DNA of 64,000 nucleotides from Guillardia theta CCMP2712 (taxonomy: Eukaryota; Protista; Cryptophyta): the NCBI RefSeq assembly GCF_000315625.1, contig NW_005434537.1, forward strand, positions 1 to 64,000, given 5' to 3'. Below are positions 21,356 through 39,959 of the stretch, one piece after another; the stretch's first letter is position 1; the number at the start of each line of letters is the position of its first letter. The translations under genes were made by a program, and so were the position numbers. The notes under the pieces are model-generated. The model searched no databases. It saw only the letters and a list, made by a program, of their open reading frames with translations, and had not been told where the DNA came from.

Positions 21356-21407
21356 AAACATGGTCTAATATTTAAGACCGAACACAAACAATCTCATCAA
21401 CTACAAC

Positions 21408-22230: not shown

Positions 22231-22566
22231 ATGGAGGGGGAGGGGGGTTCTATTTCAAGGATCCTGGGCCTCGCCACCTTCAATCTAGCCAACGACGGCG
22301 TGGCGTTGATCTTCTGGGTAACGGGATGGAAGCTTTTCACTATAGCGTTCGAGGGTGTGACGACGGGAGGGTACGTTGCGATCTTCCTCTCGGTGGTCCT
22401 GTATCGCCTGGTGGTGTACCTCTACCGGAACCACGTCCTGACGCAGAGTCCGTTCCCTGCACAACAACAGAATATCCATGCAGTCCATCACGCGACGCAC
22501 CAAGTGACTCCCTTCGACGAATTCTCCATGAGGAGGCTGGAATGGAGACCGATCTTGCAGAGGTAA
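22231..22566 (+). CDS. Small membrane protein
   Basis: Two hydrophobic segments; ATATAAA near 22185. Confidence 0.55.
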   Translation: MEGEGGSISRILGLATFNLANDGVALIFWVTGWKLFTIAFEGVTTGGYVAIFLSVVLYRLVVYLYRNHVLTQSPFPAQQQNIHAVHHATHQVTPFDEFSMRRLEWRPILQR

Positions 22567-22595
22567 CAGCACAGGGCCTGGCCCTTCACATCAGC

Positions 22596-22910
22596 ATGGC
22601 GGAGGACTTCCTCACTGAGTTCCTCCGACTGAGGGCGATGCCCATCACCATCGGCTGCGCCGCCAACATCGCCAACACGATCGACGCCTTCATGTACCAC
22701 ATCGAGATGGCCAAGGCTGTGCTCACAGACCTCACCTACGCGCGCGGCACTGCCCCAATGAAGGCCATCGTCGCGCGGTACGAAACTATTTTGTACAACC
22801 TTGAAAAGGAGATGCGGGAGCAGAGGCTGGATTACTTCCAGGAGATCTGCGATAGGAGGGAGGAAAAAGAGAGAGAAGGAGAGATAAGGAGAGACGGAGA
22901 GACAAACTGA
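22596..22910 (+). CDS. Small helical hypothetical protein
   Basis: GC3-biased ORF from MAEDFLTEF. Confidence 0.55.
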   Translation: MAEDFLTEFLRLRAMPITIGCAANIANTIDAFMYHIEMAKAVLTDLTYARGTAPMKAIVARYETILYNLEKEMREQRLDYFQEICDRREEKEREGEIRRDGETN

Positions 22911-22965
22911 ACCGTGATTTATTGTGAATACAGTCAGGTCACACTACCCTATTACTCCAGCCACC

Positions 22966-23346
22966 CTAGTACATCAGTCCGGTGCTGTTCAGGGCCGCGT
23001 CCAGCTCCACGATCTCCTCTGCCAGGATCGTGGCCTCCTCCCGGATCTTTCCGAGATCATGAACGAATTCACGGAGGAGATTTTCGATGACGTAGAGCTC
23101 GTGGAAGTCGGCCTTGTGAATCAGGGGGAGACGATCCATGCAGTGCCTCTCGGTCGTCTCTCTGAGCATGTTGTTCAGCTGAACGATCCTCAAGTTGTTC
23201 GCATTGATGTGCTTGCGCATCTCAATGCGGTAGCAGACATGCTTGACCATGGAGGACAGGGGCTCGTTATAGAGCTTACTGAACTGAAAGATAGTCAGCT
23301 TTTGGTGGGGCTGGTGTGCCTCGACGTTGTTAGTGATGGTAAACAT
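22966..23346 (-). CDS. Small coiled-coil protein
   Basis: Start MFTITNN 37 nt after TATTTAA (23383-23389). Confidence 0.65.
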   Translation of the reverse strand: MFTITNNVEAHQPHQKLTIFQFSKLYNEPLSSMVKHVCYRIEMRKHINANNLRIVQLNNMLRETTERHCMDRLPLIHKADFHELYVIENLLREFVHDLGKIREEATILAEEIVELDAALNSTGLMY

Positions 23347-23390
23347 ATCCGTTTCAAGATGGCACTGCAATCTGCAATCCATTTAAATAC

Positions 23391-23888
23391 TCACAAACCG
23401 AACGCCACGCCCCAGTCCTTGAGGATCTCCGCGCTGGAGGGCACGGGGAAGGCATTGGACTGATTTGAATGCGGGGCATCCCTGCCGTAGATCTTGCATC
23501 CCTGCCTGGCGCCCTTCCTGACGATGCTCACCTCGAGGACCTTCTTCTTCCCCGCGCGGAGGCGCTCGCCCTCCCCCCTGCCCGACTGGTTGATATCCAC
23601 GACGTACCCAAGCGACAGCTCGCTGGCGGTCCTGTCCCGCACCCACTCCTGCGCGATGGCGCCCTCCACCTCGTCCGGGCTGAGCTCCATGACGCAGTTC
23701 AGGCGCCCCTCCCGGTCCTTGAAGGCGGAGACGACGCTCCCGATGCCCACCCCCTTGTGCTCGATCTTGACCGGCAGGCCGACCATCTCCCGCCCTGCGA
23801 TGATCTCGTCGATCTCGCTATCCTTGAGGTGCAGCCCGTTGTAGCCCTCACCCTCCCCCGTCGGGTTGGCGATGCCGCAGATGAGCAT
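23391..23888 (-). CDS. Capsid maturation protease, herpes assemblin/HK97 prohead protease (SH clan) like
   Basis: LPVKIEH…IGSV (catalytic His), ELSLGY (catalytic Ser), LEVSIVRKGARQGC (oxyanion Arg motif). Confidence 0.85.
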   Translation of the reverse strand: MLICGIANPTGEGEGYNGLHLKDSEIDEIIAGREMVGLPVKIEHKGVGIGSVVSAFKDREGRLNCVMELSPDEVEGAIAQEWVRDRTASELSLGYVVDINQSGRGEGERLRAGKKKVLEVSIVRKGARQGCKIYGRDAPHSNQSNAFPVPSSAEILKDWGVAFGL

Positions 23889-24130
23889 TTTGGAACGGGT
23901 AAGAACAACGATCGCTTTTATGCATCCCGGGAGTCATACGGAGCAACAAATGCACAACAAAAAAACCGAGTGCATCCGTGGAGCGAGAGGGGGCATGGAG
24001 TAGCGTATTTAAGGCCCCGGGAGGTTGACGTCCCGAGATGAAGGTGAAGGTTGCGGTAACAAGAACGGGAAGTATTGTTCGTGTTTGTACTTAGCACACA
24101 TTATAATTAGGGATTACGGCTTAATAGCAC

Positions 24131-25012
24131 TTAAAACAGGCAGTGTGGGTTGACGTTCTCCTTGTCTTTAGCAATCGCCTTACTAATCTTGAATCGTTTG
24201 GACCCTTTCTTCTGAATCGATATCGCAGGGGAGCTGGCAAAGCCGGAAGCGTCCACCTGCATGAAGCTCAGGTAGCTGCCCATCTCTGTCGGTGTCACCC
24301 CCGCGTTGCGCAGGTCTACCTCGAGCGACGGATCCTTCCTATCCAAGGGGCAGGTATAGGGGGAGGAATAGACGTTGACCTTGCGCACAGAAGGATCCAT
24401 CACACAGTCCAGGACCCTTAGACTCTGCACCCCCAGGTCCCCAACGTAGGTCTTCAAGGCCGGATAGGCGGAGTACACGGCCTGTCCCTTGGCCCTCACG
24501 AAACCGATGAAAAAGTCCCGAAACCACCCGCAGTCGCTGGAGGTCATCATCACGCTGAGCGCCACACTCACGGACGAGCCTCGCATGCAGCACCTAGCAA
24601 ACACGTACACCTGGTGCCTGAGCCTACCATGCAGGAACTCCACCATGTCGTTGAGCAGCGGGAGGAGCGCGACGTCCGGGGATTCGTTACCCCAGTCCCC
24701 GTGGGCATAGAGCCAAAGGCAGCGGATGTCCTCGCAGTAGACACGGATGGGCGGGGGGCACGGGAACCAGGCGTCCGGTGGGAGCGCGTCGCATAGCCGT
24801 GCGTAGACCCCACGCACCCAAGGCTGACTCTCCAACTTTGCCATCCCAAGGCCCCCGTCGACCATGTCGTCACCCAGGACCTCCAAAAGCCGCACGGGAA
24901 ACTTGGGATGAAGGCCGTGGCACCCGCTCTTCACGCTCTCGACCTCACCCGGAGGCACAAAGTAGGGCACCAGCGAGATCCTCTTCTGTGGCACGAGCGC
25001 GAGGAGCACCAT
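24131..25012 (-). CDS. Hypothetical protein
   Basis: C-terminal part of the 409-aa ORF, start placed at MVLLALVPQ because the Ser-rich 5' part overlaps a better-coded ORF. Confidence 0.65.
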   Translation of the reverse strand: MVLLALVPQKRISLVPYFVPPGEVESVKSGCHGLHPKFPVRLLEVLGDDMVDGGLGMAKLESQPWVRGVYARLCDALPPDAWFPCPPPIRVYCEDIRCLWLYAHGDWGNESPDVALLPLLNDMVEFLHGRLRHQVYVFARCCMRGSSVSVALSVMMTSSDCGWFRDFFIGFVRAKGQAVYSAYPALKTYVGDLGVQSLRVLDCVMDPSVRKVNVYSSPYTCPLDRKDPSLEVDLRNAGVTPTEMGSYLSFMQVDASGFASSPAISIQKKGSKRFKISKAIAKDKENVNPHCLF

Positions 25013-25034
25013 CGTCGCATCCACCCGCTCCGAC

Positions 25035-25406
25035 TCAAGGAAGAGGCGCACACACTCCTCCGGGGAGGTGAGTCGAAGCTTGAAAGGAGCCCCTCCGGTA
25101 GTTCCCGTGGAGCAAGAAGGCACGGTCAAGATCCCGGTAGCACTCCCTTCCAGCGAGGTGGGAGGCGGGCCTCCGCTGTCCAGCACCGTAGGCGTGGAGG
25201 ATGATGAGGATTTGGAGGGCCTGGAGGGCGACGAGCAAGGCGAGCAAGATGCAGGCGAGGCCTTGGAGGAAGGAAACGGCGGGTCGTTGGACGACGTGGA
25301 AGGTTCGGTAGATGTTGAAGATGAAAACATTCTTCGAAGATCTCTGGTTTCTGGGATCAAAACTTTTCTGCTGTTCCCTTTGCGTGTACAAGACGGTGGG
25401 TCCCAT
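25035..25406 (-). CDS. Small single-pass membrane protein
   Basis: LACILLALLVALQALQILIILH encoded almost entirely by C-ending codons; TATAAAA upstream at ~25462-25468. Confidence 0.6.
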   Translation of the reverse strand: MGPTVLYTQREQQKSFDPRNQRSSKNVFIFNIYRTFHVVQRPAVSFLQGLACILLALLVALQALQILIILHAYGAGQRRPASHLAGRECYRDLDRAFLLHGNYRRGSFQASTHLPGGVCAPLP

Positions 25407-25601
25407 GCAATGGCGGCGGGAGGCGCGTGGGAGGGTGCGGAAATCCGCGGCCCGTCCCGCCTTTTATAAGCGGGGGATTTTTTAGTTGTTTTTTTTAGTT
25501 TTTTTTAGTTTTCCTTTTTTATTTTTTTTCTATGAACGCTGCGCTGAAACTGGTTTTATATTTAAGAGTAATATCGATGCAACCTACACCTGAAAACAAT
25601 C

Positions 25602-25913
25602 ATGTTTCAAAACATCATCCTTTCTGCTGAACAACGTACCGAGGCTGTCATTGCACTGGACAAACTCATGGCCAGATGGAGCAATTTGTACGTCACACCG
25701 AGTTCAATTGTGTACGACTCGCAATACAACGAGCTTCCATGCTTTGTCCGGCAAATCATTGAGGAGCGTTTTCCCCTCCCTACCGATGAGAGAGAAGTGC
25801 CAGAAGCTCACCGCCTTTACGTGCTCGAGAACCTTCGTCGCACACTCCGTGGCATCGATTACCTGTATGGAACCCATCAAAGCATCCTCGAGGGTGCTTT
25901 CCAAATGAGCTAG
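25602..25913 (+). CDS. Hypothetical protein
   Basis: 103 aa; TATTTAA at 25559-25565. Confidence 0.65.
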   Translation: MFQNIILSAEQRTEAVIALDKLMARWSNLYVTPSSIVYDSQYNELPCFVRQIIEERFPLPTDEREVPEAHRLYVLENLRRTLRGIDYLYGTHQSILEGAFQMS

Positions 25914-25973
25914 ACGTTAGCACTTGCACGCGTAGTCAGAATGATTAAAGTTCATTCGTAATTCTTTATTTTT

Positions 25974-26273
25974 TTATACGCTTTTATTTTTTTTTTCTAT
26001 GAACAATGCGCTCGCATCATCCCCCAGGCTCCTCTTCCTGTCCAATCTTTCCCTCACATTAATAAGATCCATGATCTGCCTCTGCAACCCCGCCGCCTCG
26101 TCGATGCACATCCAGTAGAAGTCCCGCAGGATCTCCGACTTCATGTCGAGCTGCTGCTCCATGCCCAGGAAGGTGCAGATATTGTGGGCGCGGTGCAGGA
26201 TATTCTGCATCTTCAACTCCAGGGACGCGATCCTGCCGTACAGATCGGAAGTGTCTCCCATTGTACCCTCCAT
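25974..26273 (-). CDS. Small coiled-coil protein
   Basis: 99-aa GC3-biased ORF. Confidence 0.6.
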   Translation of the reverse strand: MEGTMGDTSDLYGRIASLELKMQNILHRAHNICTFLGMEQQLDMKSEILRDFYWMCIDEAAGLQRQIMDLINVRERLDRKRSLGDDASALFIEKKNKSV

Positions 26274-26396
26274 GTTGATTGTATACCAACCAAGGCCCCA
26301 TCGACGCGGCTGTACGAAGGCAAACCCTCTCTCTTTTTAACCAAAAAAAAAGGTAGTTATACCCAGTCCATCCCATGGCAGGCAGCAAAGGAGAGC

Positions 26397-26891
26397 ATGC
26401 TGGAGGCGATGGAGACGGGCTGGCCGCAGCTTCACCCCATGCACATGACGCTCTCGGAGAGGATTATGCAGGAGCAGGAGAGCAAGTCCGGGGTGGGGGT
26501 TGTAGGCAGATCAAACCTGCACACCGTCTTCGTTATTCATTCCAGAGGAGAGGGGCTGACGCTCAAAACGATGGGAGAGGCACTTGAAATCCTCCAAGAT
26601 ACAGCCCCTGGGGTTCAGCTCCCCCACCGCCACCACGGGCTGTTCGAATGGGAGGGGCAGGACAAAAGCAACATCGTCCTCCAGAGCGACCAGCTCGACC
26701 TCCCCTACATCTTCGACAACAAGCCGCTCGACAGCTACGAGCAGCAGCAGATCGCCGTCCTCCCCGCCGCCGACCTCGTCGTCACCGCCAAGGAGAACCA
26801 CCTCCCGGACTCCGAGCACCGCATAGTACGCTCCATCGTCGAGGCGCTCAGGGCGTGCGGGGTGCAGGTGTCAACATCGGAACGTTTTTAG
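26397..26891 (+). CDS. Hypothetical protein
   Basis: GC3-biased ORF from MLEAMET. Confidence 0.65.
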   Translation: MLEAMETGWPQLHPMHMTLSERIMQEQESKSGVGVVGRSNLHTVFVIHSRGEGLTLKTMGEALEILQDTAPGVQLPHRHHGLFEWEGQDKSNIVLQSDQLDLPYIFDNKPLDSYEQQQIAVLPAADLVVTAKENHLPDSEHRIVRSIVEALRACGVQVSTSERF

Positions 26892-26951
26892 TTTTGCTCT
26901 TGTAATGTATTTAAATAAAACCGACTTCTGGGAAAGCATCTGATCTGATAT

Positions 26952-27485
26952 ATGTTTCGACCATTATCTCGATCGCGCAAGCATCAAGTCGTTATGTGTT
27001 ACGCCCCATACCGCTTCTATCTCCAGAAGCAGGTCGAAGAGGCACAGATTGTTGTAGACAAAACCATGCAAGAACTCAAAGAAATCAGAAGCGAACTTGC
27101 AAGTCGCCGACTTGAAGTCTCCGGAACAGTGCGAATGTATCGCAACAGGCAGATCAGCAGGCTGATTACCAAAGAGAAATCACTGCGTCGTTGTTTATAC
27201 CTTAAGCAGATCGACCAATCCGAGAAGCAGGCAAAATTGCGTTTTTATGACCAATCCCAGGCCATCAAGCCAAAACTTGACACGATCAAAAAGGAAGTGA
27301 TGGATCTGGAGTCTGCCATCAAATTTCACAAGAAGGCGCTGAAGAAGGCCAAGAAGGCAGAGGACAAGGATGCACACAATTTGAAGATCGCCGACCTCGA
27401 ACAGGAGTACAAAAAGATGTGCAGGGAGGAGCGCAAATTGAGTGCAGAGCACTTCAAACTGGAAAGGGCACTGGGATTGCGTTAA
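26952..27485 (+). CDS. Basic coiled-coil protein
   Basis: 177 aa, Lys/Glu heptads; TATTTAA at 26908-26914. Confidence 0.7.
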   Translation: MFRPLSRSRKHQVVMCYAPYRFYLQKQVEEAQIVVDKTMQELKEIRSELASRRLEVSGTVRMYRNRQISRLITKEKSLRRCLYLKQIDQSEKQAKLRFYDQSQAIKPKLDTIKKEVMDLESAIKFHKKALKKAKKAEDKDAHNLKIADLEQEYKKMCREERKLSAEHFKLERALGLR

Positions 27486-27576
27486 TTCCAATTCCAGTAG
27501 CGTTCCGTAGCGTCCATGCATGCGCACGTAGTAAGCTTCATTAAACGTAAGAAGAATAACTCCCCTACAACTCCAT

Positions 27577-28635
27577 TCACACCGGCAAGCAGGTGAGCGA
27601 AGACACCACCACCACATCCATCCCCGACCCGTTGAACACGGCGGCCTTGAGCTGGTCCTCGTTGCAGATCCCAAAGGTGGAGGAGACGTTGCCGAGCTCG
27701 CGGTTGAGGAGGGTCAGGATGCCCTCGGCGGGTCCCTGCCCGAACCCCTGCCCGGACAGCCTGCACTGCGTCTTCAGCCCAACCAACCCCGCAATGCCCT
27801 GCTGGACGGGGCAGCCGGGCGCTCCCTCCACGATGTCGCCGGGCACGCCGTAGCAGGCGATGGGCTGCGGGAGGCCGAGCACCAGGTGGCACTGCACCGG
27901 CGTCTCCTCCCTGACCGCCTGCTGCAGCCTGGGGTTGGCGGCGTGGGAGAGCACCGCGGAGGGGGCGTCCGGCGCGAGCATGGTGGTGGTGAGCGTGACG
28001 GAGCTGATGGGCATCTCCGGGTGCTTCCGCATGCTGACGTTCACCGTCTCCGCCAGCACGGTGCCGTCGAGCGAGACCGTCGACCTCCGCACCCTCAGCG
28101 ACCCCTGCTCGCAGCCCTCCGGGATGCTCCACACGCCCTTGTGCACCTGCACGGAGGCGAAGCGGGTGCTGGTCCCCACGGTCGCCGCCTTGTCGCAGCA
28201 GAAGGAGAGCACCACGCTGGCCTCGGGGCTCTGGGCCTGGATGGCCCTAGAGGCGTACCGCCAAGCCTTGCCCAGCTCCCCGTAGGACCCCATCACGTCC
28301 GCGGCGTCCTGCTCGAGCAGAGAGCCCGAGACGAACGAGTTGGTCTTCAACACGGAGGACGCCCTGCCCGCCACCTGCAAGGAGGGCCTCCTCTCCCCGC
28401 ACGCCTTGATCGTCACCCCGTACAGCGCGAACGGGGACTCCGGCTCCAGGACCTGCACCGCGGGAGTGCAGGACGCTGCCACCCCCTCCCGGTTCAGCTT
28501 GCTCGCCGTGTTGGAGGGCAGCCCCCCGCGAGAGAACAGCCCTGCCATGTCCCTGTGCTTGCCCCACGCCGACTCGAAAGCGCCCCACCTCGCCCGGAGA
28601 TCCACCGAGGATGCAACCTGCGCAGAGCCTGACAT
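27577..28635 (-). CDS. Hypothetical protein
   Basis: 352-aa ORF from MSGSAQV; TATA shared with divergent Snf7 gene at ~28666. Confidence 0.75.
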   Translation of the reverse strand: MSGSAQVASSVDLRARWGAFESAWGKHRDMAGLFSRGGLPSNTASKLNREGVAASCTPAVQVLEPESPFALYGVTIKACGERRPSLQVAGRASSVLKTNSFVSGSLLEQDAADVMGSYGELGKAWRYASRAIQAQSPEASVVLSFCCDKAATVGTSTRFASVQVHKGVWSIPEGCEQGSLRVRRSTVSLDGTVLAETVNVSMRKHPEMPISSVTLTTTMLAPDAPSAVLSHAANPRLQQAVREETPVQCHLVLGLPQPIACYGVPGDIVEGAPGCPVQQGIAGLVGLKTQCRLSGQGFGQGPAEGILTLLNRELGNVSSTFGICNEDQLKAAVFNGSGMDVVVVSSLTCLPV

Positions 28636-28719
28636 ATACGTTTGATCAGGCACCTGAGCTGAATTTATATAGGCTCGGGCCGGCCGCTCCCTCGCAATAC
28701 ACAACCCCCTTTTTAAGGG

Positions 28720-29436
28720 ATGCCAGGCTGCATCGGCGTCTTCGCCTCCGGGTGGATACGCGTCCTACGCCTGACGGGGTTGTACAGGGACGAGGAGGCC
28801 GTCACCGCGCAGGCCATCAACGGCCTGGTCGTCAGCATCGACCACCTGCGGGGCCAGGAGGACGCGCTCGGCAGCGAGCTGTCCGCCCTCACGCAGCAGA
28901 TCAAGGGCAAGCGCTCGGCCGGCATGAAGGCCCTGAAGCCCCTCCTCCTCAAGTGCAAGCAGAAGCGCGTCCGCCTCACCCAGATCGTACGCAAGCGCGA
29001 GTCATTCGAACACCACCTCGACGTCCTGAACAACACGGAGATCGACCAGACGCTCATCACCACCGTGAAGCAAACGGCCACCGCCATGAAGAGCCTCGGG
29101 ATACACAAGCAGATCGACGACGTCGACACCCTCATGTCCGACCTCGAAGACTCCCACCTCGACGCCAAGGAGATGTCCGACCTCATGTCGTCCCGCCTCG
29201 GGAGGGAGGAGGACCTCGACGACGCAGAACTCGAAGAGGAGCTCAAGGCCCTCCTTGAGATCGACGAGGATGACACCGCCTCCTACCTCCTCCCCTCCGC
29301 GCTGCAGGCTCCATCCCGGAAACAGACCATGGTTGAAGTCCCGCAGGTCACTTCCAGCATGGTATACGCAGATAATCCCAAGGAAGATTTGGAAGAGGAA
29401 AAGAGAGTAGAAGTGCCTTTGGTACCCATATCTTAA
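28720..29436 (+). CDS. Snf7/ESCRT-III family protein (Vps32/CHMP4-like)
   Basis: Basic N-terminal helices (LKPLLLKCKQKRVRLTQI), VKQTATAMKSL…IDDVDTLMSDLED…EMSDLMS, DLDDAELEEELKALL. Confidence 0.85.
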   Translation: MPGCIGVFASGWIRVLRLTGLYRDEEAVTAQAINGLVVSIDHLRGQEDALGSELSALTQQIKGKRSAGMKALKPLLLKCKQKRVRLTQIVRKRESFEHHLDVLNNTEIDQTLITTVKQTATAMKSLGIHKQIDDVDTLMSDLEDSHLDAKEMSDLMSSRLGREEDLDDAELEEELKALLEIDEDDTASYLLPSALQAPSRKQTMVEVPQVTSSMVYADNPKEDLEEEKRVEVPLVPIS

Positions 29437-29476
29437 GCACGAGCATATTTATTTACATACAGACCTCGCCTGCGAA

Positions 29477-29977
29477 TCAGGGAGTGCAAAGGTAGTGTAG
29501 AGCATCGCTACAGCTCGAAAAAGTTAGGTCAACGGGGAATTCATCGACGTAGCCCTCCGACTCGTGCTGGAGCCGCTGAATGTGACTCTCTGCCTTGTCC
29601 CCGTAGACCTTCCTAATTCTACTGAGCTGCTCCTCCTTCCCGACGTCCAACCTTACCAGTAAGAACTTCCGGTCCCGGAGCATCAGGAATTCATCCCAGA
29701 ACCTCACATCGTCGATCACCACCCTCTGATCGGGATGAGAGTCAAGCTTCCGCTCCATCAGCTTGATCCACACTCGGTTGTCGATCTCCCGCATCTTCTG
29801 CCCAAAATCCTGGATCAGCGCACGGTCCTTGCCCGTCATGCCAAAGATCTCCCCTGCGTAGCGCTTGATGGGCTCAGCGAAGCTCAGCCTCTTGAAGCCA
29901 TGGTCCCACTCGAGGTTGGACGCCAGGGTCGTCTTCCCCGCGCACATCCTCCCGCAGATGGCGATTCTTTCATGCAT
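29477..29977 (-). CDS. Deoxynucleoside monophosphate kinase (P-loop)
   Basis: GRMCAGKTT Walker A, SFAEPIK, LIQDFG, VVIDDVRF, HESE. Confidence 0.85.
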   Translation of the reverse strand: MHERIAICGRMCAGKTTLASNLEWDHGFKRLSFAEPIKRYAGEIFGMTGKDRALIQDFGQKMREIDNRVWIKLMERKLDSHPDQRVVIDDVRFWDEFLMLRDRKFLLVRLDVGKEEQLSRIRKVYGDKAESHIQRLQHESEGYVDEFPVDLTFSSCSDALHYLCTP

Positions 29978-30041
29978 GGGATAAGGTCCAGGAGAAAGAA
30001 GTTTTGTGACCGAGGAGGTAAAGCTCTTGTTTTTTTTTTCA

Positions 30042-30494
30042 TTAAACATTATCCATCTCCTGCGCCACCCTCTCCTGCACCCTCTGGGCGACGAACTCGT
30101 CGAGCATGAAGTCGACGGGCTGCGGCAGGGCGAAGCTCGTCCGGTGGGGCTCGGAGATCACCATCTGCATGACGGAGCAGAGTTCCTGCCGCACCTTCAG
30201 CAGCGCATCCTCCCTGCTCAGCTCCTCCCTCTTCAGCATAGCGTCGATATCATGGAATATCCTCGCCAGCTGCTCCACCAGAAGCGTGGACATCCTCCCT
30301 ACCGACTCGTACACGCTAGTGATCCTCTCGTTATGCTCGTCCCGCTCGACACTCAGCGCCAAAAACATCACCATCGACAGAAGCCACTGCAGGTAGCTCA
30401 CCGCTGCCACAGTCTCGTTGCCCTCACCGGTAAGCAGAGCAGTAATGAATAGACCAGTGATGACCGTCATTGTGGCTACCTCCACCAGGTTCAT
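30042..30494 (-). CDS. Membrane protein, two TM segments plus coiled coil
   Basis: Hydrophobic N-terminal segments. Confidence 0.6.
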   Translation of the reverse strand: MNLVEVATMTVITGLFITALLTGEGNETVAAVSYLQWLLSMVMFLALSVERDEHNERITSVYESVGRMSTLLVEQLARIFHDIDAMLKREELSREDALLKVRQELCSVMQMVISEPHRTSFALPQPVDFMLDEFVAQRVQERVAQEMDNV

Positions 30495-30594
30495 ATCTTC
30501 ACATCGCTTGCTCCCAGCGAACATTGGCGAGCGAGTGCCTTGGACATATTTTTGGATGCTTAGATGGGGGTAGGGTGGTTAGAGGGGAAGGAGA

Positions 30595-31102
30595 GGGTGG
30601 GGTACTCACTGGTACTAAATTAAGTAATTATATAATACTTATACAGCCAGGCCTCCCAGGGAAGGCCCCCCCCCCTGGCCAGAATTTGGAAACCGTTAAA
30701 CCGTTAAACCGTTAATTTCAACGGTTCTATATATGTATATACATATATAATATACATATATAATATACATACTATATATGTTACTTAATATGTATAGTAC
30801 TAATTAGTACTGTGTTAAACCCTGTTACACTATATACATTAGTACTATATAGTACTAATACATAGAGCGTAACAGAGAATCACAGAGTACTAATTAGTAC
30901 TATATACATTAAGTAATATATATAGTATGTATATTATATATGTATATTATATATATATATTATATATATACGACCGTTAATCTTAACGGTTTAACGGTTT
31001 AACGGTTTCCAGATTCTGGCCAGGGGGGGGGCCTTCCCTGGGAGGCCTGGCTGTATAAGTATTATATAATTACTTAATTTAGTACCAGTGAGTACCCCAC
31101 CC
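30595..31102. other. 508-bp imperfect AT-rich palindrome with AAACCGTT iterons: candidate replication origin or genome-terminus junction
   Basis: gggtggggtactcactggtactaaattaag… is mirrored by …cttaatttagtaccagtgagtaccccaccc; axis in agtactatatagtact at 30848/30849; ORF-free. Confidence 0.9.
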
Positions 31103-31215
31103 CCAAATATCCCATTCACAGGGAGTAGGGGTGGTAAACCACCCCTGTTTTTTTTTGTTTTTCTTGCTTCCCGCGTTCAAGCCCGTCGACTCCCGCGCCG
31201 CCGCTCCCTGCCGCC

Positions 31216-31971
31216 ATGGAGGGGAAGGAGCAGCCGATGCGGGTGGTGAGCTCACTGACGGGGGAGAGCTTCCGTTCCCATGAGGTGTGTGTGATGTGTG
31301 GGGTTCTTCTCGGAACGGGGGATGGTCGTCGGAGCAAGACGGCGCGGACCTTTCAGTGCATGTTAGACAACCGCTGGCGGGAGACGCCGTATGTTTGGGC
31401 TTCGGTGAGAGAGGTGGCGGGGGCGAGGAAGGATCCCAACTACCGCTTGACGGCCTGCACGGCCTGCATCAACTGGATACGGAGGTCGGTGCCGAGCAAC
31501 GAGCACGCAGAGCAGAGCGTGGGGAAGCGGAAGGTGTACCTCCTGATCGACCGGCTGATCTGCTTCTCCCTTGCTCCCGGGGAGGTGGCGTGCCCAGACA
31601 TGCGGAACATGCGGAGGCTTCTTTCCTGCCTCCTTGATGAGAGGGTAGTGGGGAAGGAGCGGGTGGTGAACTACTACCGCGCCGCTGTGCTGCCCGAGCA
31701 CCTGCGTCAGGCGCTGGAGGAGTGCGGCGGTGAGGTGAACTCGTTCATCCGGAGGGTGGTGCTGCGCTGGTTCAGGGACGTCAACAATAGCTCTCCGGTC
31801 TTCCGCCATCCCAACACCGCCTACATCGTGCGGAAAGCGCTGGGGTGGACGAAATGGGATAGCAGCGTGCGGGTATGTATTAAACGTGATGGCAGTGAAT
31901 GGGATGGCGAGGAGGACGAAGATGCAACATTCGGGTGTGATGAGCTCGGGAGCCCCGTCGACGGCGCCTGA
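31216..31971 (+). CDS. Zn-finger-like protein
   Basis: CVMC and CTAC motifs; 251 aa. Confidence 0.75.
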   Translation: MEGKEQPMRVVSSLTGESFRSHEVCVMCGVLLGTGDGRRSKTARTFQCMLDNRWRETPYVWASVREVAGARKDPNYRLTACTACINWIRRSVPSNEHAEQSVGKRKVYLLIDRLICFSLAPGEVACPDMRNMRRLLSCLLDERVVGKERVVNYYRAAVLPEHLRQALEECGGEVNSFIRRVVLRWFRDVNNSSPVFRHPNTAYIVRKALGWTKWDSSVRVCIKRDGSEWDGEEDEDATFGCDELGSPVDGA

Positions 31972-32308
31972 CACCACCCTGGAGGTGTGCTGCGTGGGCA
32001 TCGCCGATCCGCAGTATATGCCCGAAGCGCTGCACGAGGTAGAGCGGAGGGTAAGGGCGGAGGCGCTGGCAGAGGCGGAGGGAGTGCCTTGCGCTGCGCT
32101 GGAGGCCGGGAGCTGGAAGGAGTTTCGCGGGAGCGCGCTGGCCTGGGCCCGTGGGTACCGTTCCTCTCCTCCCTCGGGTTGTGTCCTTCCGCATAACCTT
32201 GGCGTGGTCTCCTTCGTTAGTGGCATGCTATCGTACCGCGTGCCGCAGGTGGAGGCAAGGGAGCCCGAGACGGGGAGGAAGAGGAAGGATCACGAGGATG
32301 AGTGCTAG
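31940..32308 (+). CDS. Hypothetical protein
   Basis: ORF from MSSGAPST followed by AATAAA at ~32317. Confidence 0.55.
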   Translation: MSSGAPSTAPDTTLEVCCVGIADPQYMPEALHEVERRVRAEALAEAEGVPCAALEAGSWKEFRGSALAWARGYRSSPPSGCVLPHNLGVVSFVSGMLSYRVPQVEAREPETGRKRKDHEDEC

Positions 32309-32401
32309 TGTTTTGGAATAAAGCAAGGATGTTTTGTCTCCATCGCCCCCACCACCCCTTCTATGCATGTATATAAATCGCTTGTTTGCCTAGCACCCAA
32401 G

Positions 32402-34747
32402 ATGTCGGCCAGGGTCCGCGTGCGTGCGAGGTTGTCGGGTGCGGCAGGGAGTGACTTGAAGGACGAAATCTTGAACGTGAAGGGGGCAAAGATGCCCTTC
32501 GTCGGAGCGGTGCGCATAGTGTGTGAGAGGAAGGGCGTGGAGCACGACATCATTGAGCACGCGATGGCATGGGTGGGCTGCCGGAACTCGTACTCGGCGG
32601 TGCCGCTGGGGGAGGGGCTGTTCGTGGTGTCGGGAGACCTGGCGGAGGCGGAGGTCAGAGACCTGCAGCTGATGGCGGTGGCGCCCGGTCCTTCTCCGGA
32701 ACAGCTGGCGATGATGGGCGCCCCGCCGAACTCCAAGGACATCCATGTCGGGACGGGGAGGGTGCCGCTGCGTGGCCTGCTGGAAGTGTCCTGCGGGGAC
32801 GTCGGGAGCGTCGAAGAGGATAAGCCCAGGAGCGCGCTGATGAGCATCGGGTACGACCCTGTCCAGCCCGACGTCGAGCTGAAGGTGCAGGCGGTGCCGC
32901 TGCCGGAGGGGATGCGGGGGAGGTTCCGGGAGATGAACCGGGCGGCGCTGCGGGCCTTTGGTGCGATGGAGGAGACGCTCATCCCCATGGGCCAGGACCG
33001 CATCCACCGCTACAACATGCGGCAGAACCTGATCTCACAACGCTTCTACGCGGAGCTGCTGCAGCGCGGGATCAAGCGGCACCCGGAGGGGGTGATGACC
33101 GGGTCGTTTGTGAGCAGCATCGGGAACACGCTCGTGGATCTGTTGACGAACATGGATGTGATCATGCAGGAGAAGATCCGGCTCTCGAGGACGACGGCGC
33201 TCGACGCCTTTGGCATCACCTCGTCCCTGTTCCGGATGACGGGGCTGTCGTTCCACGACCGCATCGACGCGAGGTCAGCGGCCGACTGCCTGGCCAACGT
33301 CGGCGGGCTGTTTGCCTCGGACTTCACCTACGCCAGCGACGTCAAGCCCGTATTGGCGGAGAAGACGCCGCGGGACCTGAAGCCAATCATCGAGAGGGAG
33401 GAGGGGGATGGTTACGTCATCGAGGTGTACGAAGATAGTGAAGAGCAGGAGAAGGTGCCCTCCTACGCGATGAGCGAGGACATCATGGTGCCGTTCTCGG
33501 ATATCTACCTGAGGTCTGCGCGGGCGGGGGATGCTTTTGGAGCTTCTATCGGAGCCAGGATCAAGAATCGCACCCCCGGGGAGTCGCTCTTCAACCACCT
33601 GGACAAGAAGCGCCGGGGCTACATCGAGGGCCTGCGCCACGGGGACTGCGAGGACCTGGCTCACATGGCGATCCTTCAGTTCAGCTACATGCGCCGCTTC
33701 TGCGTGAGGCTGAGTAGCAAGTGCGGGGTGATCTACGACGAGTACCCCGACCTCGAACGCATGGAGCCGGAGAAGTTCGCGGGTGTGGTGCTCGAGTCAC
33801 TCCGCGGGCAGCCCGAGCTAAAGGAGTGGACGGACGACGAGCTCCGGGGCGTGCTGCGGCAGTGCGGGGAGTTTGGGGAGCACATCCATGACACCTCCAT
33901 GCGGGCGGTGCTGATGACGGCCAAGGCGGCGAAGATGTCGGCGTCGGGCAAGCCGATGAACATGCACCCCGCGGGCCACTGCGCGGCAATGATCGTCCGC
34001 GGGAATTCGAGCGTCAAGAGTATTCCGAGCAGCGCCGTCGTCTCCTCCTCTGCCGAAAACGACCAGAGCAGCTACGACCGCATCCTGACGGAGCTGACGA
34101 CGGCGGTAAGGATCGAGAGCTTCGCGGGGCGGGGCGAGGTGGTTGGGCAGCCGAGTGCCTACGTGTCGCAGAAGATCCAGGCGGCGGGAGGACCGCCCAC
34201 CCCGCTGACGGAGGCTGCCTTCTACAATCAGTGCACGATGCTCATGGCGCCGTCGCGGGAGATGAAGCCCTGGATGCACATCGGGAAGCTGGACGGCATC
34301 TTCTGGCACGTGGTGTCGACGATCGGGGACACAATACTGGTGAAGAACTCCGTCGCGGGGGTGCCGATCTCCGAGGCGGTAAGCACCTCCGACCCCTCCC
34401 TGCGCGGTATCAAAATCGACTTTACGGAGGAGGAGAAAAAGGAGACCCTGCTGATGGCGCGCTACGCGCTGCCCCCGATCGAGAGCAGCACCGCCCTGAT
34501 CGGGAAGAAGCTCGACCGCCCTCTGGGACGCTGCCTCTACGGCCCTGACACCATCCCGATTAGCTATGTCCTTGCTCCTAGTAAGGCCGCGGAGGTCGCC
34601 GCCTGGGTGGGGCAGAACCAGGCGCAGCGCTACCAGGTGACACTGGGCGGGAAGATCATCGCTGTTCACCAGATGAACAAGTGCGCGATGAAGGGACTGC
34701 GCGAGAGTCTGATGAAGAAGGACAGGGTCAGTTTTGTGAATCTTTAG
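32402..34747 (+). CDS. Large protein with transglutaminase/papain-like catalytic motifs
   Basis: HGDCEDLA and PAGHCAA motifs; TATATAAA at 32370. Confidence 0.65.
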   Translation: MSARVRVRARLSGAAGSDLKDEILNVKGAKMPFVGAVRIVCERKGVEHDIIEHAMAWVGCRNSYSAVPLGEGLFVVSGDLAEAEVRDLQLMAVAPGPSPEQLAMMGAPPNSKDIHVGTGRVPLRGLLEVSCGDVGSVEEDKPRSALMSIGYDPVQPDVELKVQAVPLPEGMRGRFREMNRAALRAFGAMEETLIPMGQDRIHRYNMRQNLISQRFYAELLQRGIKRHPEGVMTGSFVSSIGNTLVDLLTNMDVIMQEKIRLSRTTALDAFGITSSLFRMTGLSFHDRIDARSAADCLANVGGLFASDFTYASDVKPVLAEKTPRDLKPIIEREEGDGYVIEVYEDSEEQEKVPSYAMSEDIMVPFSDIYLRSARAGDAFGASIGARIKNRTPGESLFNHLDKKRRGYIEGLRHGDCEDLAHMAILQFSYMRRFCVRLSSKCGVIYDEYPDLERMEPEKFAGVVLESLRGQPELKEWTDDELRGVLRQCGEFGEHIHDTSMRAVLMTAKAAKMSASGKPMNMHPAGHCAAMIVRGNSSVKSIPSSAVVSSSAENDQSSYDRILTELTTAVRIESFAGRGEVVGQPSAYVSQKIQAAGGPPTPLTEAAFYNQCTMLMAPSREMKPWMHIGKLDGIFWHVVSTIGDTILVKNSVAGVPISEAVSTSDPSLRGIKIDFTEEEKKETLLMARYALPPIESSTALIGKKLDRPLGRCLYGPDTIPISYVLAPSKAAEVAAWVGQNQAQRYQVTLGGKIIAVHQMNKCAMKGLRESLMKKDRVSFVNL

Positions 34748-34768
34748 GGTTTTTATGAATAGTCTTTT

Positions 34769-35134
34769 TTATTCCTCTCTTTCGATTGCCTCCTCTGACC
34801 TTCCCGGCGTCTGCTGGACGTCTTCGGGAGTGACCGCGGGACTCGCTGCTTCGTTTCCCGCTCCTTCTTCCCCTGCTGTTCCCGTCTCTTCCACTGGCAG
34901 GATGGGAGTGAGCGTCTCTGGAACTTCAGGGACGGGAAGCGGGAGGGGAGTTTGAGAGACAGGCACGCGCTGAAAAAGCGGTTGGGTGAGGGCCGGGAGG
35001 GAAGGGGCGGTGAGCACAGGGAGGGAGGGGGCGGACAGGTGAGAGGGGTGAGTGCCGAGCGTCTGGAAGGAGTACGAGAGCGGGAGCGGTGTGAGTCCGA
35101 CGAGGGCGGCGGCGAGCATGGTTACTGTCTTCAT
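34769..35134 (-). CDS. Small secreted Pro-rich protein
   Basis: Signal-peptide-like MKTVTMLAAALVGL; APSLP repeats; TATATAAAA upstream. Confidence 0.6.
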   Translation of the reverse strand: MKTVTMLAAALVGLTPLPLSYSFQTLGTHPSHLSAPSLPVLTAPSLPALTQPLFQRVPVSQTPLPLPVPEVPETLTPILPVEETGTAGEEGAGNEAASPAVTPEDVQQTPGRSEEAIEREE

Positions 35135-35172
35135 CTTCTAGAGAATTACACCGTGGGAGCGTTTTATATACC

Positions 35173-35790
35173 CTAGGGTGCGGCTGTGAAGGCGCGCAGG
35201 ATACCGTCACATACAGAGTTGAATACGTCGACGACGATCCCGTAGAGCTCCGGGGTGAAGACGACGAGGACGAGATCCTTGGGGTGTGTCCTGACGTGCC
35301 CTCCGACGAAGGTTAGCGCGACCGGGAGAACGAGGATGAGCAGCTCTGTTGCCGTGCGCGCGATGCTCCCACCGACGATGACCCTCCTGCCGATGCCATC
35401 CAGCGTGGTCGCCATGGTGTAGAGCATGTGGACGTTGCAGAAGCAGCCGAGCAGCACCACCAGGCTGGGCTCCAGGGTGACCAGGCGGACGAGCAGCGCG
35501 GTGTACACCACCCACGCCTCCAGGAAGTGCATGACGTACTCCAGGGTCTTCCCGTCGGCCCCCGAGGTGTAGACCAGGCTGGGTAGGAAGCACGCCACCA
35601 GGTGGAAGAGCGTGACGGCCGGGAAGAGGAAGGCCTGCGCTACCGTGAGGCGGTAGCTCTGGGCGGGGCTCTTGTCGAAGTGGAAGCCCCCCACCTCGAC
35701 TAGGGTGGGAATGTAGTAGAAGGCCAGGCAGTAGCACTTCAGCAGCGTCGGGCAGCTGTTGTGGAAGCAGGGGCGGCTTGTGATGGGCAT
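35173..35790 (-). CDS. Multi-pass membrane protein
   Basis: 205 aa, about 5-6 hydrophobic segments. Confidence 0.75.
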   Translation of the reverse strand: MPITSRPCFHNSCPTLLKCYCLAFYYIPTLVEVGGFHFDKSPAQSYRLTVAQAFLFPAVTLFHLVACFLPSLVYTSGADGKTLEYVMHFLEAWVVYTALLVRLVTLEPSLVVLLGCFCNVHMLYTMATTLDGIGRRVIVGGSIARTATELLILVLPVALTFVGGHVRTHPKDLVLVVFTPELYGIVVDVFNSVCDGILRAFTAAP

Positions 35791-35943
35791 CTCTGGAGGC
35801 GGAGGGGCGCGGGGAAGCGCCGCACGCGATTATAGGCCGCTGTTTTTTTTTTGTTCTGTTTTTTTTGACACACGGGAATTATTAATAAACGAACTTTATT
35901 GCAACAGTTATGCAGCTCGGGACTAGAAGTAGACCTTTCACTC

Positions 35944-36213
35944 TTAGTTGCTCAATAAGTCAATCAGCGAGCTGATATGCAAGTTCATGGTCTCGATCTC
36001 ATCCATCACCTTCTTGATGCTGGCGACTTCCGCAGCCAGTTTGCTGTGGATCTCCTGTGGGGTGGCTGTTTCGTCGATCTTGACGATGTTGTCACAGGTG
36101 TCGTTCAACATGGCATGGAAACGATTTTCCTTTTTGAAGCAAATGAGCTCGAACTTAAACATGCTGAATGCGGAAATAATACCGTCGAGCGTGCGTTTGA
36201 TGGACATGGACAT
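35944..36213 (-). CDS. Small helical protein
   Basis: 89 aa; TATTTAA at 36255-36261. Confidence 0.6.
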   Translation of the reverse strand: MSMSIKRTLDGIISAFSMFKFELICFKKENRFHAMLNDTCDNIVKIDETATPQEIHSKLAAEVASIKKVMDEIETMNLHISSLIDLLSN

Positions 36214-36267
36214 CTTTGAAGTGCTTTGGCGTGGTGTGAACTTCTCCGCCGCATTTAAATAAGCGGC

Positions 36268-36822
36268 TCACCGGAACTCGTAATTGACATCGTATCTCAA
36301 TAGTTCTCCCTCCACCTCCTCGCGGACTCGCCTGGCCGCTTCCCTGGGGAAGACGTCTCTGGGATTCTTGCTGTTGAACTTTCGGTGGTACCCGGGAGCC
36401 ATGCCGATGCCCTCCAGTATGACAGTCTTGATCTGCGAATTCTGGGTGAGGATGTGGCGGAGGGCGCTGGTGACGGTCCTGGCGTAGCTCCCCACGATCT
36501 TGTAGCAGGCGACGTTGGCCCTGTGGCGGAGCGGGGCGATGTCCCTGAAGTCGATGATGCTCTGCTCGTTGCCGCCGATGTAGGGGTGGCGCGGCGTCAG
36601 GATCCATTGGGCGGAGGCCAGGCGATCACGATTGAGCTGGACCCAGGTCTCTGAGTCCGTGGATGCAACCACCTGCGGATTCGTGATGTGGTCCGCCACC
36701 TCGTTGATGTAGAGGTTCAACGCCCCCGGGGTTGGCACCCCTTTGAAGCTTGGACCCTTGCCGTGGACGTGCAAGGTGGTGTAGCACTGGGTGTAGGCGA
36801 GGAAGGCCATGGGGCGGTCCAT
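36268..36822 (-). CDS. Hypothetical protein
   Basis: 184-aa GC3-biased ORF. Confidence 0.7.
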   Translation of the reverse strand: MDRPMAFLAYTQCYTTLHVHGKGPSFKGVPTPGALNLYINEVADHITNPQVVASTDSETWVQLNRDRLASAQWILTPRHPYIGGNEQSIIDFRDIAPLRHRANVACYKIVGSYARTVTSALRHILTQNSQIKTVILEGIGMAPGYHRKFNSKNPRDVFPREAARRVREEVEGELLRYDVNYEFR

Positions 36823-36825
36823 GAT

Positions 36826-37218
36826 TCAGAGCCTTTTTTTATATTCGGATAAATAGGACTGCGCCTGAAGATCCTCCCAACCTAGCTTGGCGTAGAGTTC
36901 CAGGATCATCTCGGCGGATCGCCTCATGCAGTCCCTTTCGGTTCCTTCATACTTGATGTGGTAAAGACAGTCGTGGATCTTCTCTAGCTTCTCGATGCTC
37001 GCCCTCACGTGGTACTTCAGCATTGGAAAGTTGTTGATCGCGTTTACCAGCATGCGGTAAAGGGGGATGGGGATGTTGTTTCTGGCAATCCTCTTCTCGA
37101 TTCTCAGTGCCTCCCTCGCGTAGGGATCTTCCAATTCGTTATTCTTGTTCAGAATATCACTGTAGTGGTTCAAGACGTTCATATCATGATTCCACAGGTC
37201 TATGCAGGTCGTGGCCAT
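36826..37218 (-). CDS. Hypothetical protein
   Basis: 130-aa ORF. Confidence 0.65.
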   Translation of the reverse strand: MATTCIDLWNHDMNVLNHYSDILNKNNELEDPYAREALRIEKRIARNNIPIPLYRMLVNAINNFPMLKYHVRASIEKLEKIHDCLYHIKYEGTERDCMRRSAEMILELYAKLGWEDLQAQSYLSEYKKRL

Positions 37219-37406
37219 GGTTTTCTGGGTGGTTCCGGGTTCGTCGGCTTTTTATTGACCCATCTAGAAAAAAAAACTCCCCGTCAAAAAAAATGACATC
37301 GAAAAAAAAAAATAAAATGTCTTATCGAAAAAAAAACTCCCCTGGTCTGTCTTTTTAATTGCCTCCATGTAGCCATCTCCCTGCATTTGCACCATCCTGC
37401 CAAAGG

Positions 37407-38822
37407 ATGAATGCACTCCATCCGCTCGACCTTCCCGCCGAGCCCCTCCAGGAGTATCCCGAGGAGGAGAAGGCCTTCATCATACCCACCGAAAAGTCTT
37501 CAGTCATTGCTAGCGCCTCTATCCCAGCGGACCCCGTCGAGCACGGCCTCCGTGTGCTGTACCGCTGCCTCCTCTCGACCCCCTTCTTCGGGGTGGTGCA
37601 GCAGACGTTCTTCCGGGGCAATGTCACCTGCGCGGACGTGATGCTGGAGACAGACAGGTCGAAGATACGGAAGGTGGAAGTGGCGGACCTGAAGGCCTTC
37701 GTCCGGAAGTACCTCGACCCTCTCAGGAGCTTCCACTTCGGCTGTGAGTACAACCAACCCATCCACCGGGAGCGGATCATGACCCACGGCTTCGCGCCCG
37801 CCTTCCGCGTGCTGAGCCTGGACATCGACTCGGCGATGAGCGTGGAGCCCTTCTGGAAGCAGCAGGCGTTCATGACCTGCCTCCTCGCGAACGCGGTGCT
37901 GCGGCGCTTCATGCCCGCGGAGGCGACCGAGCGCCACGTGCTGGTGTGCTTCACCGGGGGAGGGTGGCATGTCTACTTCGCCTGCGCAAGGCTGGCAAAG
38001 AGTCAGGCGCGGTGGGCGATCGTCGAGAACATCTCCCGCGCCTCGCTGTTTGCGACGGAGCGGGGTGGGGGCAGCAACCCGCGCTTTCGCCGTGACAGGG
38101 AGGGATTCCTGCAGCTTCCGTTCGGCTGTGAGTGGGTGGATGGGGACCTGTTGCATAGGCGGGTGGACGAAGCCCCTGATGTCGTCTGGAAATCGCGGGA
38201 GGATATAGCCTTGCTAGTGGATAACCTGGGTTACTTCCTGCGGGACACGCAGGGGAGGCATCGGGAGTGGCTGGGGGAGAAGGGTCCCATCGTCTCCGTC
38301 CTCCGAAGCGTGCGCCACATCCCCCATACACTGGATGTCAAGGAGAGATTGGATGGCCTTGTGCGGGAGGTGCGGGAGGGAAGGGTGAGGCTGATGGGTC
38401 CGCTGTTCTCGTCGCTATCCCGCATCTCGCAGTTCGAGAACATGCAGGCGAGGAGGAGTTGCGTCGCCGACGCGGCTTGGCTCAAGGGCGCGGTGATGTA
38501 CGCCTGCATCAGCCATGATTGCTTCGTGAGCGGCTACCATGTCGACCAGAACTGCGGCCAGATGCAGCAGATGCTCCGCGGCCCTCTCTCCGCCAAGGTG
38601 AGGGCCTCGGGGGGGTGCTTCCTGTCCTACCCCATCGGGAATCTGTCGGAAGTGCTCCAGGCGACCTACAAGGAGGCCGTCGTGCGCGTCACCGACCTGT
38701 CCGATACCTACGACATCGAGAAGCAGCCAATACTGAAGAAGGGCCTCGTCAGGTTCTACGCCTGGGCAAGGCTAATGCGCCGGAGTACGAATCGAGGAAG
38801 GGATGCCGAGGATAACGATTAA
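37407..38822 (+). CDS. Archaeo-eukaryotic primase catalytic subunit (PriS-like)
   Basis: Motif I LSLDID, motif II FTGGGWHVY, motif III VDQNC…MLRGPLSAK…SYPI. Confidence 0.8.
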   Translation: MNALHPLDLPAEPLQEYPEEEKAFIIPTEKSSVIASASIPADPVEHGLRVLYRCLLSTPFFGVVQQTFFRGNVTCADVMLETDRSKIRKVEVADLKAFVRKYLDPLRSFHFGCEYNQPIHRERIMTHGFAPAFRVLSLDIDSAMSVEPFWKQQAFMTCLLANAVLRRFMPAEATERHVLVCFTGGGWHVYFACARLAKSQARWAIVENISRASLFATERGGGSNPRFRRDREGFLQLPFGCEWVDGDLLHRRVDEAPDVVWKSREDIALLVDNLGYFLRDTQGRHREWLGEKGPIVSVLRSVRHIPHTLDVKERLDGLVREVREGRVRLMGPLFSSLSRISQFENMQARRSCVADAAWLKGAVMYACISHDCFVSGYHVDQNCGQMQQMLRGPLSAKVRASGGCFLSYPIGNLSEVLQATYKEAVVRVTDLSDTYDIEKQPILKKGLVRFYAWARLMRRSTNRGRDAEDND

Positions 38823-38883
38823 GGGCCATTTATTCTAAGATCTAGAAAGGGTAGGTCTACCAAAGAGTCGAATATGACGCTGT

Positions 38884-39234
38884 CTAGTAAAAGAATTTCT
38901 CATTCTTGCTGTCATCCTCAAAGCGTTTGATCTCTTGTTGCATCCGTTTGCTGGTATCGTTGGCAAATAAATGATTGCCTGTAGCGTTGGCAAGGCGGGT
39001 GTGTTGGGCAAGCTGGACCTCGAGAATGTGAATGTGATTGTCAAAGAATTTGACCCTTATGTTGCACGGGATGCGGTCTTCGTAATTCATCTTGAAGTGC
39101 TCAGATTTCCACTCGTAGCGAAAGTGCAATTCGCCTTTGTCGTTCATCTTGGGTGTGAGCGGGACTTCGGTTCTCTTACGCTTGCCATAACCTCCCCAGG
39201 TATACCCTCCAATAGGAATGTTGTAAGTGAACAT
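38884..39234 (-). CDS. AT-rich hypothetical protein with NLS-like KRKR
   Basis: Start MFTYNIP 36 nt after TATTTAA (39270-39276). Confidence 0.6.
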   Translation of the reverse strand: MFTYNIPIGGYTWGGYGKRKRTEVPLTPKMNDKGELHFRYEWKSEHFKMNYEDRIPCNIRVKFFDNHIHILEVQLAQHTRLANATGNHLFANDTSKRMQQEIKRFEDDSKNEKFFY

Positions 39235-39338
39235 TGTCGTTTTCGGTGTCTGATGCTGTGTTGTCCGATTTAAATATGATTTGGAAAAAAAGATAGGAAC
39301 GGGCAAGGTGGGTGGCGGGTTGCTGATTTTTCCTAAGT

Positions 39339-39959
39339 ATGTCCTGGAACAGTCTGGAGGAGTTCATCAGTTTCTTCATCGCGAGCCAGGAGTGCGCGCC
39401 GCTGCCGGTCCTGACGCTCCACGAGGAGAGCGGGGGTGACCGCGTGACGAACGGCTTCGATCTGCTGTTTGAGATGATCCGCCAGTCGATCTACAGCTCG
39501 GCGGCGTTCAGCGACGAGGAGAGGGATGCCATGAAGAGGAAGAAACTGGATCTGCTACGAAGGCTCAGGGCTGCATTGAAGGACATCGACACGGGTTGCT
39601 CCCCCGAGCTCCCGCCCTGGGAGTGGTCGGACGCATCCAAGGAGCGGGTGTACCAGGAGATGTGCCGGTATCTCCGCGACCTTGCCAAGGTGTACGCGAT
39701 GCACGAGGAGATCGACCTGCGCTTTGCCCCCATGGCCGACATCCACCCTTCCCACCCCGTCAACACCGCCGCCGCCGACCACTTCCTCGCGCTGTGCCGG
39801 CTGACCAAGATGGACAGCCCCGACTGGGCCTCTGGAGCTCCGGATGAGTTTAAGAAGCACCTGGATGTTGGCTTAGAAGACCTTGCCCGCCGCCCCTACT
39901 GGCTCAACGTTTGCATCCACGCCTACAAGATCCGCCTGGAGGAGGCGGGGTTGGCTTGA
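39339..39959 (+). CDS. Hypothetical protein
   Basis: 206-aa GC3-biased ORF. Confidence 0.7.
   Translation: MSWNSLEEFISFFIASQECAPLPVLTLHEESGGDRVTNGFDLLFEMIRQSIYSSAAFSDEERDAMKRKKLDLLRRLRAALKDIDTGCSPELPPWEWSDASKERVYQEMCRYLRDLAKVYAMHEEIDLRFAPMADIHPSHPVNTAAADHFLALCRLTKMDSPDWASGAPDEFKKHLDVGLEDLARRPYWLNVCIHAYKIRLEEAGLA

Follow-up and report, generated by a model that had tools for sequence, protein, structure and literature searches.

The window analysed in the present study is a stretch of 64,000 nucleotides, in which a gene-dense, mirusvirus-like segment of 49.5 kb (924..50427, assigned to no strand) with a sawtooth strand bias has a 332-bp tandem array on either side. The named organisms nearest to the proteins of this segment are cryptophyte algae. 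A capsid-like ORF of 1258 aa (6833-10609), with 644 homologues, has its nearest named homologue in Hanusia phi (75% over residues 1-350), and its neighbours in the Atlas, phage capsid families at a score of 0.85, provide no more than a lead; no sequence match was observed in the PDB, and the predicted model of residues 1-350 failed (pLDDT 48). A prohead protease, TBP, and Snf7, all expected of a mirusvirus, were found in the segment: a protease-like gene (23391-23888) with a weak prohead-protease match (Peptidase_S78, E 7e-4, just under its cut-off), a match to phrog_4523 (E 1e-3) in the same test, an Snf7 gene (28720-29436, E 2e-14), and a TBP gene starting at 49884 (E 5e-25) that is cut by the repeat array. 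TBP and Snf7 are counted among the core functions of mirusviruses in the available part of PMC12768974. The segment also encodes a dNMP kinase (29477-30049), a HIT-type protein, and, on the + strand, a primase-like ORF of 471 aa (37407-38822) with primase-like motifs and Atlas neighbours including archaeo-eukaryotic primase clusters (0.94-0.96, again a lead). The products of 46546-47451 and 47520-48434 may be triplex-like proteins. The library search returned no triplex hit in the segment; as it also recognised no polymerase, portal, or terminase, and the array truncates the TBP gene, the segment is probably incomplete. A cryptophyte clade of mirusviruses, E03, with lake relatives, is described in the consulted sections of PMC10827195 and PMC11465185, and we infer that the segment belongs to this clade.

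The segment contains an imperfect palindrome of 508 bp (30595..31102, no strand) with its axis at 30848/30849, a candidate bidirectional origin. Alignment of the two arms (30595-30848 and 30849-31102) gave 233 identities, 20 mismatches, and 2 gaps, with 233 of the 255 columns paired, and the pairing ends abruptly outside these limits. This is by a wide margin the strongest inverted repeat of the 64-kb window, with a folding energy z of -34 that none of 100 shuffles equalled. The arms differ at 2 positions in the outer 120 nt and at 20 in the inner 134 nt. Each arm carries a conserved box, a predicted protein-binding site: the left box (30631..30685, + strand) comprises a TATAAT word, a CTCCCAGG core at 30653, a G/C tract, and CTGGCCA, and its inverted copy (31012..31066, - strand) has its core at 31037. 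Three tandem AAACCGTT units follow in the left arm (30690..30715, + strand), and the repeat scan placed three more in the right arm (30983..31008, - strand). Between them lies the AT-rich core (30716..30982, no strand), a predicted unwinding region with 20 arm mismatches and six symmetrically placed AGTACT words; the 200-nt stretch with the highest AT content of the viral segment (30769-30968, 79.5% AT) is inside the palindrome. The preliminary description had reported near-perfect outer arms of about 120 bp, a C10/G9 tract and three AAACCGTT units per arm, a mismatched AT-rich inner part with agtact dyads, and a centre at 30848/30849, and each of these points was reproduced. The AAACCGTT units contain TAACGG, a word similar to Myb-type binding sites through which a host factor might be linked to the element.

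The element had also been called the only long ORF-free region, with genes diverging from it. The gap at the palindrome is indeed the longest between the 49 ORFs used (691 nt), but other gaps of 477 and 326 nt exist; likewise, the neighbouring genes are divergent, but this is weak evidence because 10 of the 47 gene junctions show this arrangement. To the left of the element 16 of 29 genes point away from it and to the right 13 of 19, a weak trend. A second copy of the arm was not found within the 64-kb window, and the likeness of the arm to 22015-22090, the array unit, the LTR, and the host transposon was at chance level. A 26-bp tandem repeat with GGTAC words at 22015-22085 resembles the outer arm, with a similarity that is not significant. 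To the right of the element, a three-gene block on the + strand (31216..34747) encodes a 251-aa Cys4 protein (31216-31971, + strand) with two CxxC pairs (four conserved cysteines), a 139-aa protein, and a 794-aa protein (32363-34747, + strand). The 251-aa family has at least 150 distant representatives, and a confident model was predicted for this member (pLDDT 84). Examined as a candidate initiator, the 251-aa protein gave no fold match at E 0.001 in the PDB or BFVD, and no initiator was recognised, which counts against an origin. A homologue of the 794-aa gene is present in Guillardia theta (39%), and the GDCED and GHCAA words of its product resemble transglutaminase-like catalytic motifs.

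The reality of the palindrome was evaluated in contigs of four sequencing runs (X1, X2, X6, and X7), compared over 29000-30716 only, which takes in the left flank and the outer part of the left arm. X2 and X6 are from other studies, and X1 may be related to the source of the window. One X1 contig joins the arm to the reverse complement of the right flank of the window and others join it to the left flank, and therefore these contigs fit a real inverted duplication. A diverged copy (about 11%, 36 differences in 325 nt) carries the arm at the same left junction, with four of its five gaps just outside the arm, and arm variants were found in X2 and in the freshwater metagenome X6, in the latter at gene-like depth; variants of the left box are present in X1, X2, and X6. 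The patchy run X7 gave no cover over the arm. In X1, the summed contig depth, which is not a copy number, was 1170-2857 over the arm compared with about 80-170 in genes, an excess not observed in X2 and X6, and at least four arm variants with other flanks were present, from one virus or several. Long palindromes can originate by fold-back of reads or in assembly, and among the contigs listed none spans the whole element. Nevertheless, with 22 arm-to-arm differences, different flanks on the two sides, both flanks joined to the arm in X1, and arm sequence in X2 and X6, an artefact is extremely improbable; the preliminary description had already judged it unlikely.

The 332-bp tandem array is GC-rich (63%), occupies 1-923, 50427-58751, and 61526-63193, and has no Rfam family. 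Each full array unit contains CTCCCAGG, the core of the conserved box, with 29 copies to the right of 50427, and the overall likeness of the array unit to the arm is at chance level. In X2, one contig joins the array directly to the arm at 30628. The array may be a host satellite that captures viral DNA or a KSHV-like viral terminal repeat. In the boldest form of our interpretation, since the array units share the CTCCCAGG core and X2 joins array and arm, it might be a cognate repeat array, terminal-repeat or tether-like, that keeps origin-bearing viral DNA in the host. Two sequences interrupt the array: at 58751-61526 a 2.8-kb element that has GTAC-rich ends and terminal inverted repeats of 12 bp, and at 63193 an LTR-like sequence. 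Both interruptions occur at the CTCCCAG word of the array unit, which may be a hot spot for breakage or targeting.

The cumulative GC skew of the segment reaches its minimum at 30515-30525. The strand bias was tested at the fourfold-degenerate sites of 48 genes, with gene strand as a covariate and 43 breakpoints, and the palindrome gap was the best breakpoint (t 4.72, 4 of 2000 permutations). In a jump-plus-slope fit (R2 0.60), the GC skew jumps by +0.63 (t 6.5) with a slope of -0.146 per 10 kb (t -4.1), and the T-over-A skew jumps in the same direction (+0.44, t 2.9). The silent-site skew decays linearly on both sides of the palindrome, and the jump would be exhausted over about 43 kb. Mean skew was -0.29 for + genes and +0.05 for - genes on the left, and +0.05 for + genes and +0.31 for - genes on the right. 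Because coding strands are C-rich in this segment (strand term -0.14), outwardly directed transcription would produce a skew of opposite sign. According to the consulted portion of PMC3459929, an upward jump followed by a linear decrease is the pattern of human origins, whereas in budding yeast, whose leading strand is C/A-rich, upward jumps correspond to termination sites. Since polarity differs between organisms, the jump alone cannot separate an origin from a fork end point. Herpesvirus origins are often without a clear skew switch, as stated in the accessible text of PMC1904460. The strand bias shows that fork direction has long switched at the element.

The metagenome scan yielded one locus from 259 candidates, L001, the sole relative found and a distant one (10.75 kb, six orthologues at 35-50% protein identity). 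The three-gene block, including the 794-aa protein, adjoins the element in both sequences and is on the + strand in both, to the right of the element in the window and to its left in L001. No element precedes the block in L001; instead, a gene-free stretch after it contains the AT-richest 200 nt of the contig, around which the best forward (4641-4678, the counterpart of the left box) and reverse (4996-5073, that of the right box) arm matches converge. Their summed score of 83 compares with a mean of 55 and a maximum of 73 for shuffled queries, and none of 400 reached it. CTCCCAGG and its complement occur once each, 337 nt apart (384 in the window), TATAAT precedes the left core by 24 nt (22 in the window), and the outer end word of the arm lies 61 nt past the right core (56 in the window). 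The C tract of the window is a G/A tract in L001, with a T10 run inside the left box and an A7 run inside the right box. No AAACCGTT triplet is present, only two AACCGT words on one side, and the two halves pair poorly (148 identities, 69 mismatches, and 46 gaps). The fold z of -0.6 was obtained on a piece without most of the right box, and the half alignment is therefore the better test of symmetry. The search for a syntenic palindrome suggested in the preliminary description thus recovered a homologous box pair with an AT core, but after rather than before the block and not as a near-perfect palindrome. The triple 'iterons' named there are not retained, whereas the GC box, noted merely as a tract, is. 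Because L001 is without the near-perfect pairing and the triple repeat, these comparisons suggest that the conserved unit is the box pair around the AT core, rather than the hairpin or the iterons.

The change of side is accompanied by a reversal of strand bias. The skews of the three side-changing genes are +0.39, +0.34, and +0.30 in the window but -0.34, -0.18, and -0.42 in L001, whereas three orthologues to the right of the element in both sequences kept their sign (+0.40, +0.12, and +0.21 in the window; +0.20, +0.02, and +0.23 in L001). At aligned codons, G-to-C and C-to-G differences stand at 73:11 in the side-changing genes compared with 58:35 in the controls (p 2.6e-4), a result driven mostly by one gene (60:8 of the 73:11), with the controls leaning weakly in the same direction. 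In L001, a C-rich gene (-0.33) directly to the right of the element displaces the minimum of the cumulative skew to 5614, about 600 nt past the element.

Protein scans of the viral contig collection found no relative. Four loci from pattern scans of viral contigs (0, 2, and 2) were rejected as unrelated chance matches. Among genome contigs, the 794-aa gene gave no locus and the capsid alignment search gave 4 loci. The more distant set comprised five whole marker-bearing contigs (G002:C2, G002:C5, G003:C146, G003:C173, and G004:C51; 290 kb) with capsids 30-60% identical. They carry mirusvirus-like genes (capsid, TBP, or protease) and have been assigned to prokaryote genome bins. Neither an arm-profile match at E 0.05 nor a long AT-cored palindrome was observed in these 290 kb or in five 20-kb pieces without marker hits, and G004:C51 contained one 76-nt inverted pair (75%). 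Because none was found in the 290 kb of more distant contigs, the element is either confined to this lineage or went undetected because the genomes are partial. Searches of open-access papers yielded no mirusvirus replication origin, and neither palindromes nor skew are mentioned in the accessible parts of PMC12768974, PMC12606086, PMC10827195, and bioRxiv 10.1101/2023.06.15.545109.

Since the polarity of strand bias differs between organisms, the element could alternatively be the junction of the two ends of a linear packaged genome, with short inverted terminal repeats or a symmetric terminase site, where forks running off the ends would leave a sharp jump once these were joined. If the leading strand were C/A-rich, as the yeast data in the portion consulted describe, a sharp jump decaying inward would also be expected; the single copy in 49.5 kb and the T10 and A7 runs in the boxes of L001 are consistent with such a junction, as is a G-quadruplex-type run overlapping the left edge (30566-30602), although this is one of 15 such motifs in the segment. 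Herpesvirus pac1/pac2 signals consist of a T-rich run flanked by G-rich runs, with CGCGGCG next to the T-rich run (PMC13595911, in the text available). CGCGGCG is absent from the element in both the window and L001, and the longest T run in the arms of the window is 3, the T10 run of L001 standing beside a G tract; the herpesvirus packaging features invoked in the preliminary description are thus not borne out. Moreover, terminal repeats should be near-identical, which the halves of L001 are not, and several arm variants with different flanks in X1 fit a repeated element at least equally well. Junctions of poxvirus hairpin ends contain a concatemer resolution motif and long identical terminal repeats. 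This motif is absent from both elements, the arms are only 254 nt long, and the halves of L001 are poorly paired, arguing against the poxvirus-type end that had been suggested. Because pac signals are directional, as far as the consulted text describes them, pac words are missing, and the halves of L001 are not identical, the anatomy favours an origin over fused ends, which we consider unlikely.

Two further explanations deserve less weight. A transcription control region, such as a bidirectional promoter or enhancer without a role in replication, would let the bias follow transcription, and divergent neighbours, TATAAT words in both boxes, and the presumably Myb-like TAACGG in the repeat units are consistent with it; baculovirus homologous regions (hrs) also act as enhancers. 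However, the jump survives correction for gene strand with a sign opposite to the coding-strand bias, and + strand orthologs reverse their bias with position, making this explanation improbable on its own, although an enhancer role alongside an origin role is possible. A host MITE or fold-back element inserted in an endogenous virus would share the long terminal arms, AT-rich interior, and absence of an ORF, and both the excess of X1 depth over the arm and the GTAC-rich ends of the host transposon at 58751-61526 point in this direction. Yet the palindrome ends have no target-site duplication, and the 21 loose ends listed include only one at the outer boundary of the arm, the right flank of the window itself, and thus no pattern of many insertions with one shared boundary; MITE membership was rejected on these grounds. 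In addition, a homologous element is present in a metagenome virus contig, L001, the X6 variants are at gene-like depth, the element resembles the host transposon no more than expected by chance (30 of 300 shuffles), and an insertion would leave the jump unexplained. This explanation is already largely refuted and very improbable.

Herein, we propose that the element is probably a bidirectional, sequence-defined origin of replication in a mirusvirus lineage associated with cryptophytes, because the strand bias jumps at the element and three side-changing genes reverse their bias. Of the replication and packaging roles combined in the preliminary description, the first is thus supported, by this jump and by the homologue in L001, and the second is not, given the missing pac features. 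In the mechanism envisaged, a viral or host protein would bind the two boxes in opposite orientation, the AT-rich core would melt, and two forks would depart, using the G/T-rich strand as the leading strand. The decay of the skew might stem from other origins, or from diffuse termination, about 40-45 kb away. The near-perfect hairpin and the triple repeat may reflect later, lineage-specific copying from arm to arm and be dispensable for function. More tentatively, this might be the first sequence-defined mirusvirus origin, a box-pair element occurring about 40-45 kb apart or once per circle that loads the replisome in the algal nucleus, moves between genome positions, and resets mutational bias in each gene that it passes. 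Two large mirusvirus orders are reported to have no DNA polymerase and to depend on the nucleus of the host (PMC12768974, in the sections available). With a defined 0.5-kb element and relatives in culturable cryptophytes, initiation becomes directly testable and a bait sequence is indicated. Furthermore, the reversal of bias in side-changing genes provides a natural control, of a kind rarely available, that connects fork direction in a virus with a cis element.

Among known systems, baculovirus hrs are non-coding, AT-rich, and palindromic, with several dispersed copies per genome at positions that vary between relatives. The element shares these properties, being non-coding, AT-rich, and palindromic, not fixed in position, and possibly present several times per genome, but it forms a single long dyad, not a series of short palindromes, with one copy in 49.5 kb. 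As for hr-like dispersal, one copy was observed in the 64-kb window, and the X1 variants with other flanks may come from one virus or several. The oriL of HSV is a palindrome. The oriS of HSV consists of inverted boxes around an AT-rich spacer (PMC12543377, in the portion consulted), and because symmetric boxes around an easily melted core represent this layout, the anatomy favours an origin. Inversely oriented boxes, an AT-rich spacer, a gene-free gap, and a virus of the same realm are common to the element and oriS/oriL as described in that portion; in contrast, about 380 nt separate the boxes of the element, which are C/G-rich with a homopolymer tract, the OBP box word is absent, and the 60 ORFs scanned in this partial segment contain no UL9-like helicase and no helicase family. 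With herpesvirus pac1/pac2 junctions, as far as described in the source available, the element shares G/C tracts and a G-quadruplex-type run at one edge, but it is two-fold symmetric and lacks CGCGGCG and, in the arms of the window, a T tract. The upward jump and linear decay of GC and TA skew are like the N-shaped profiles of human origins (PMC3459929, same portion), unlike which they extend over tens of kilobases in a viral genome and are tied to a defined sequence element. The element works like a box-pair origin and, judged by their defining sequences, stands outside the herpesvirus ori, pac, poxvirus-end, and MITE families.
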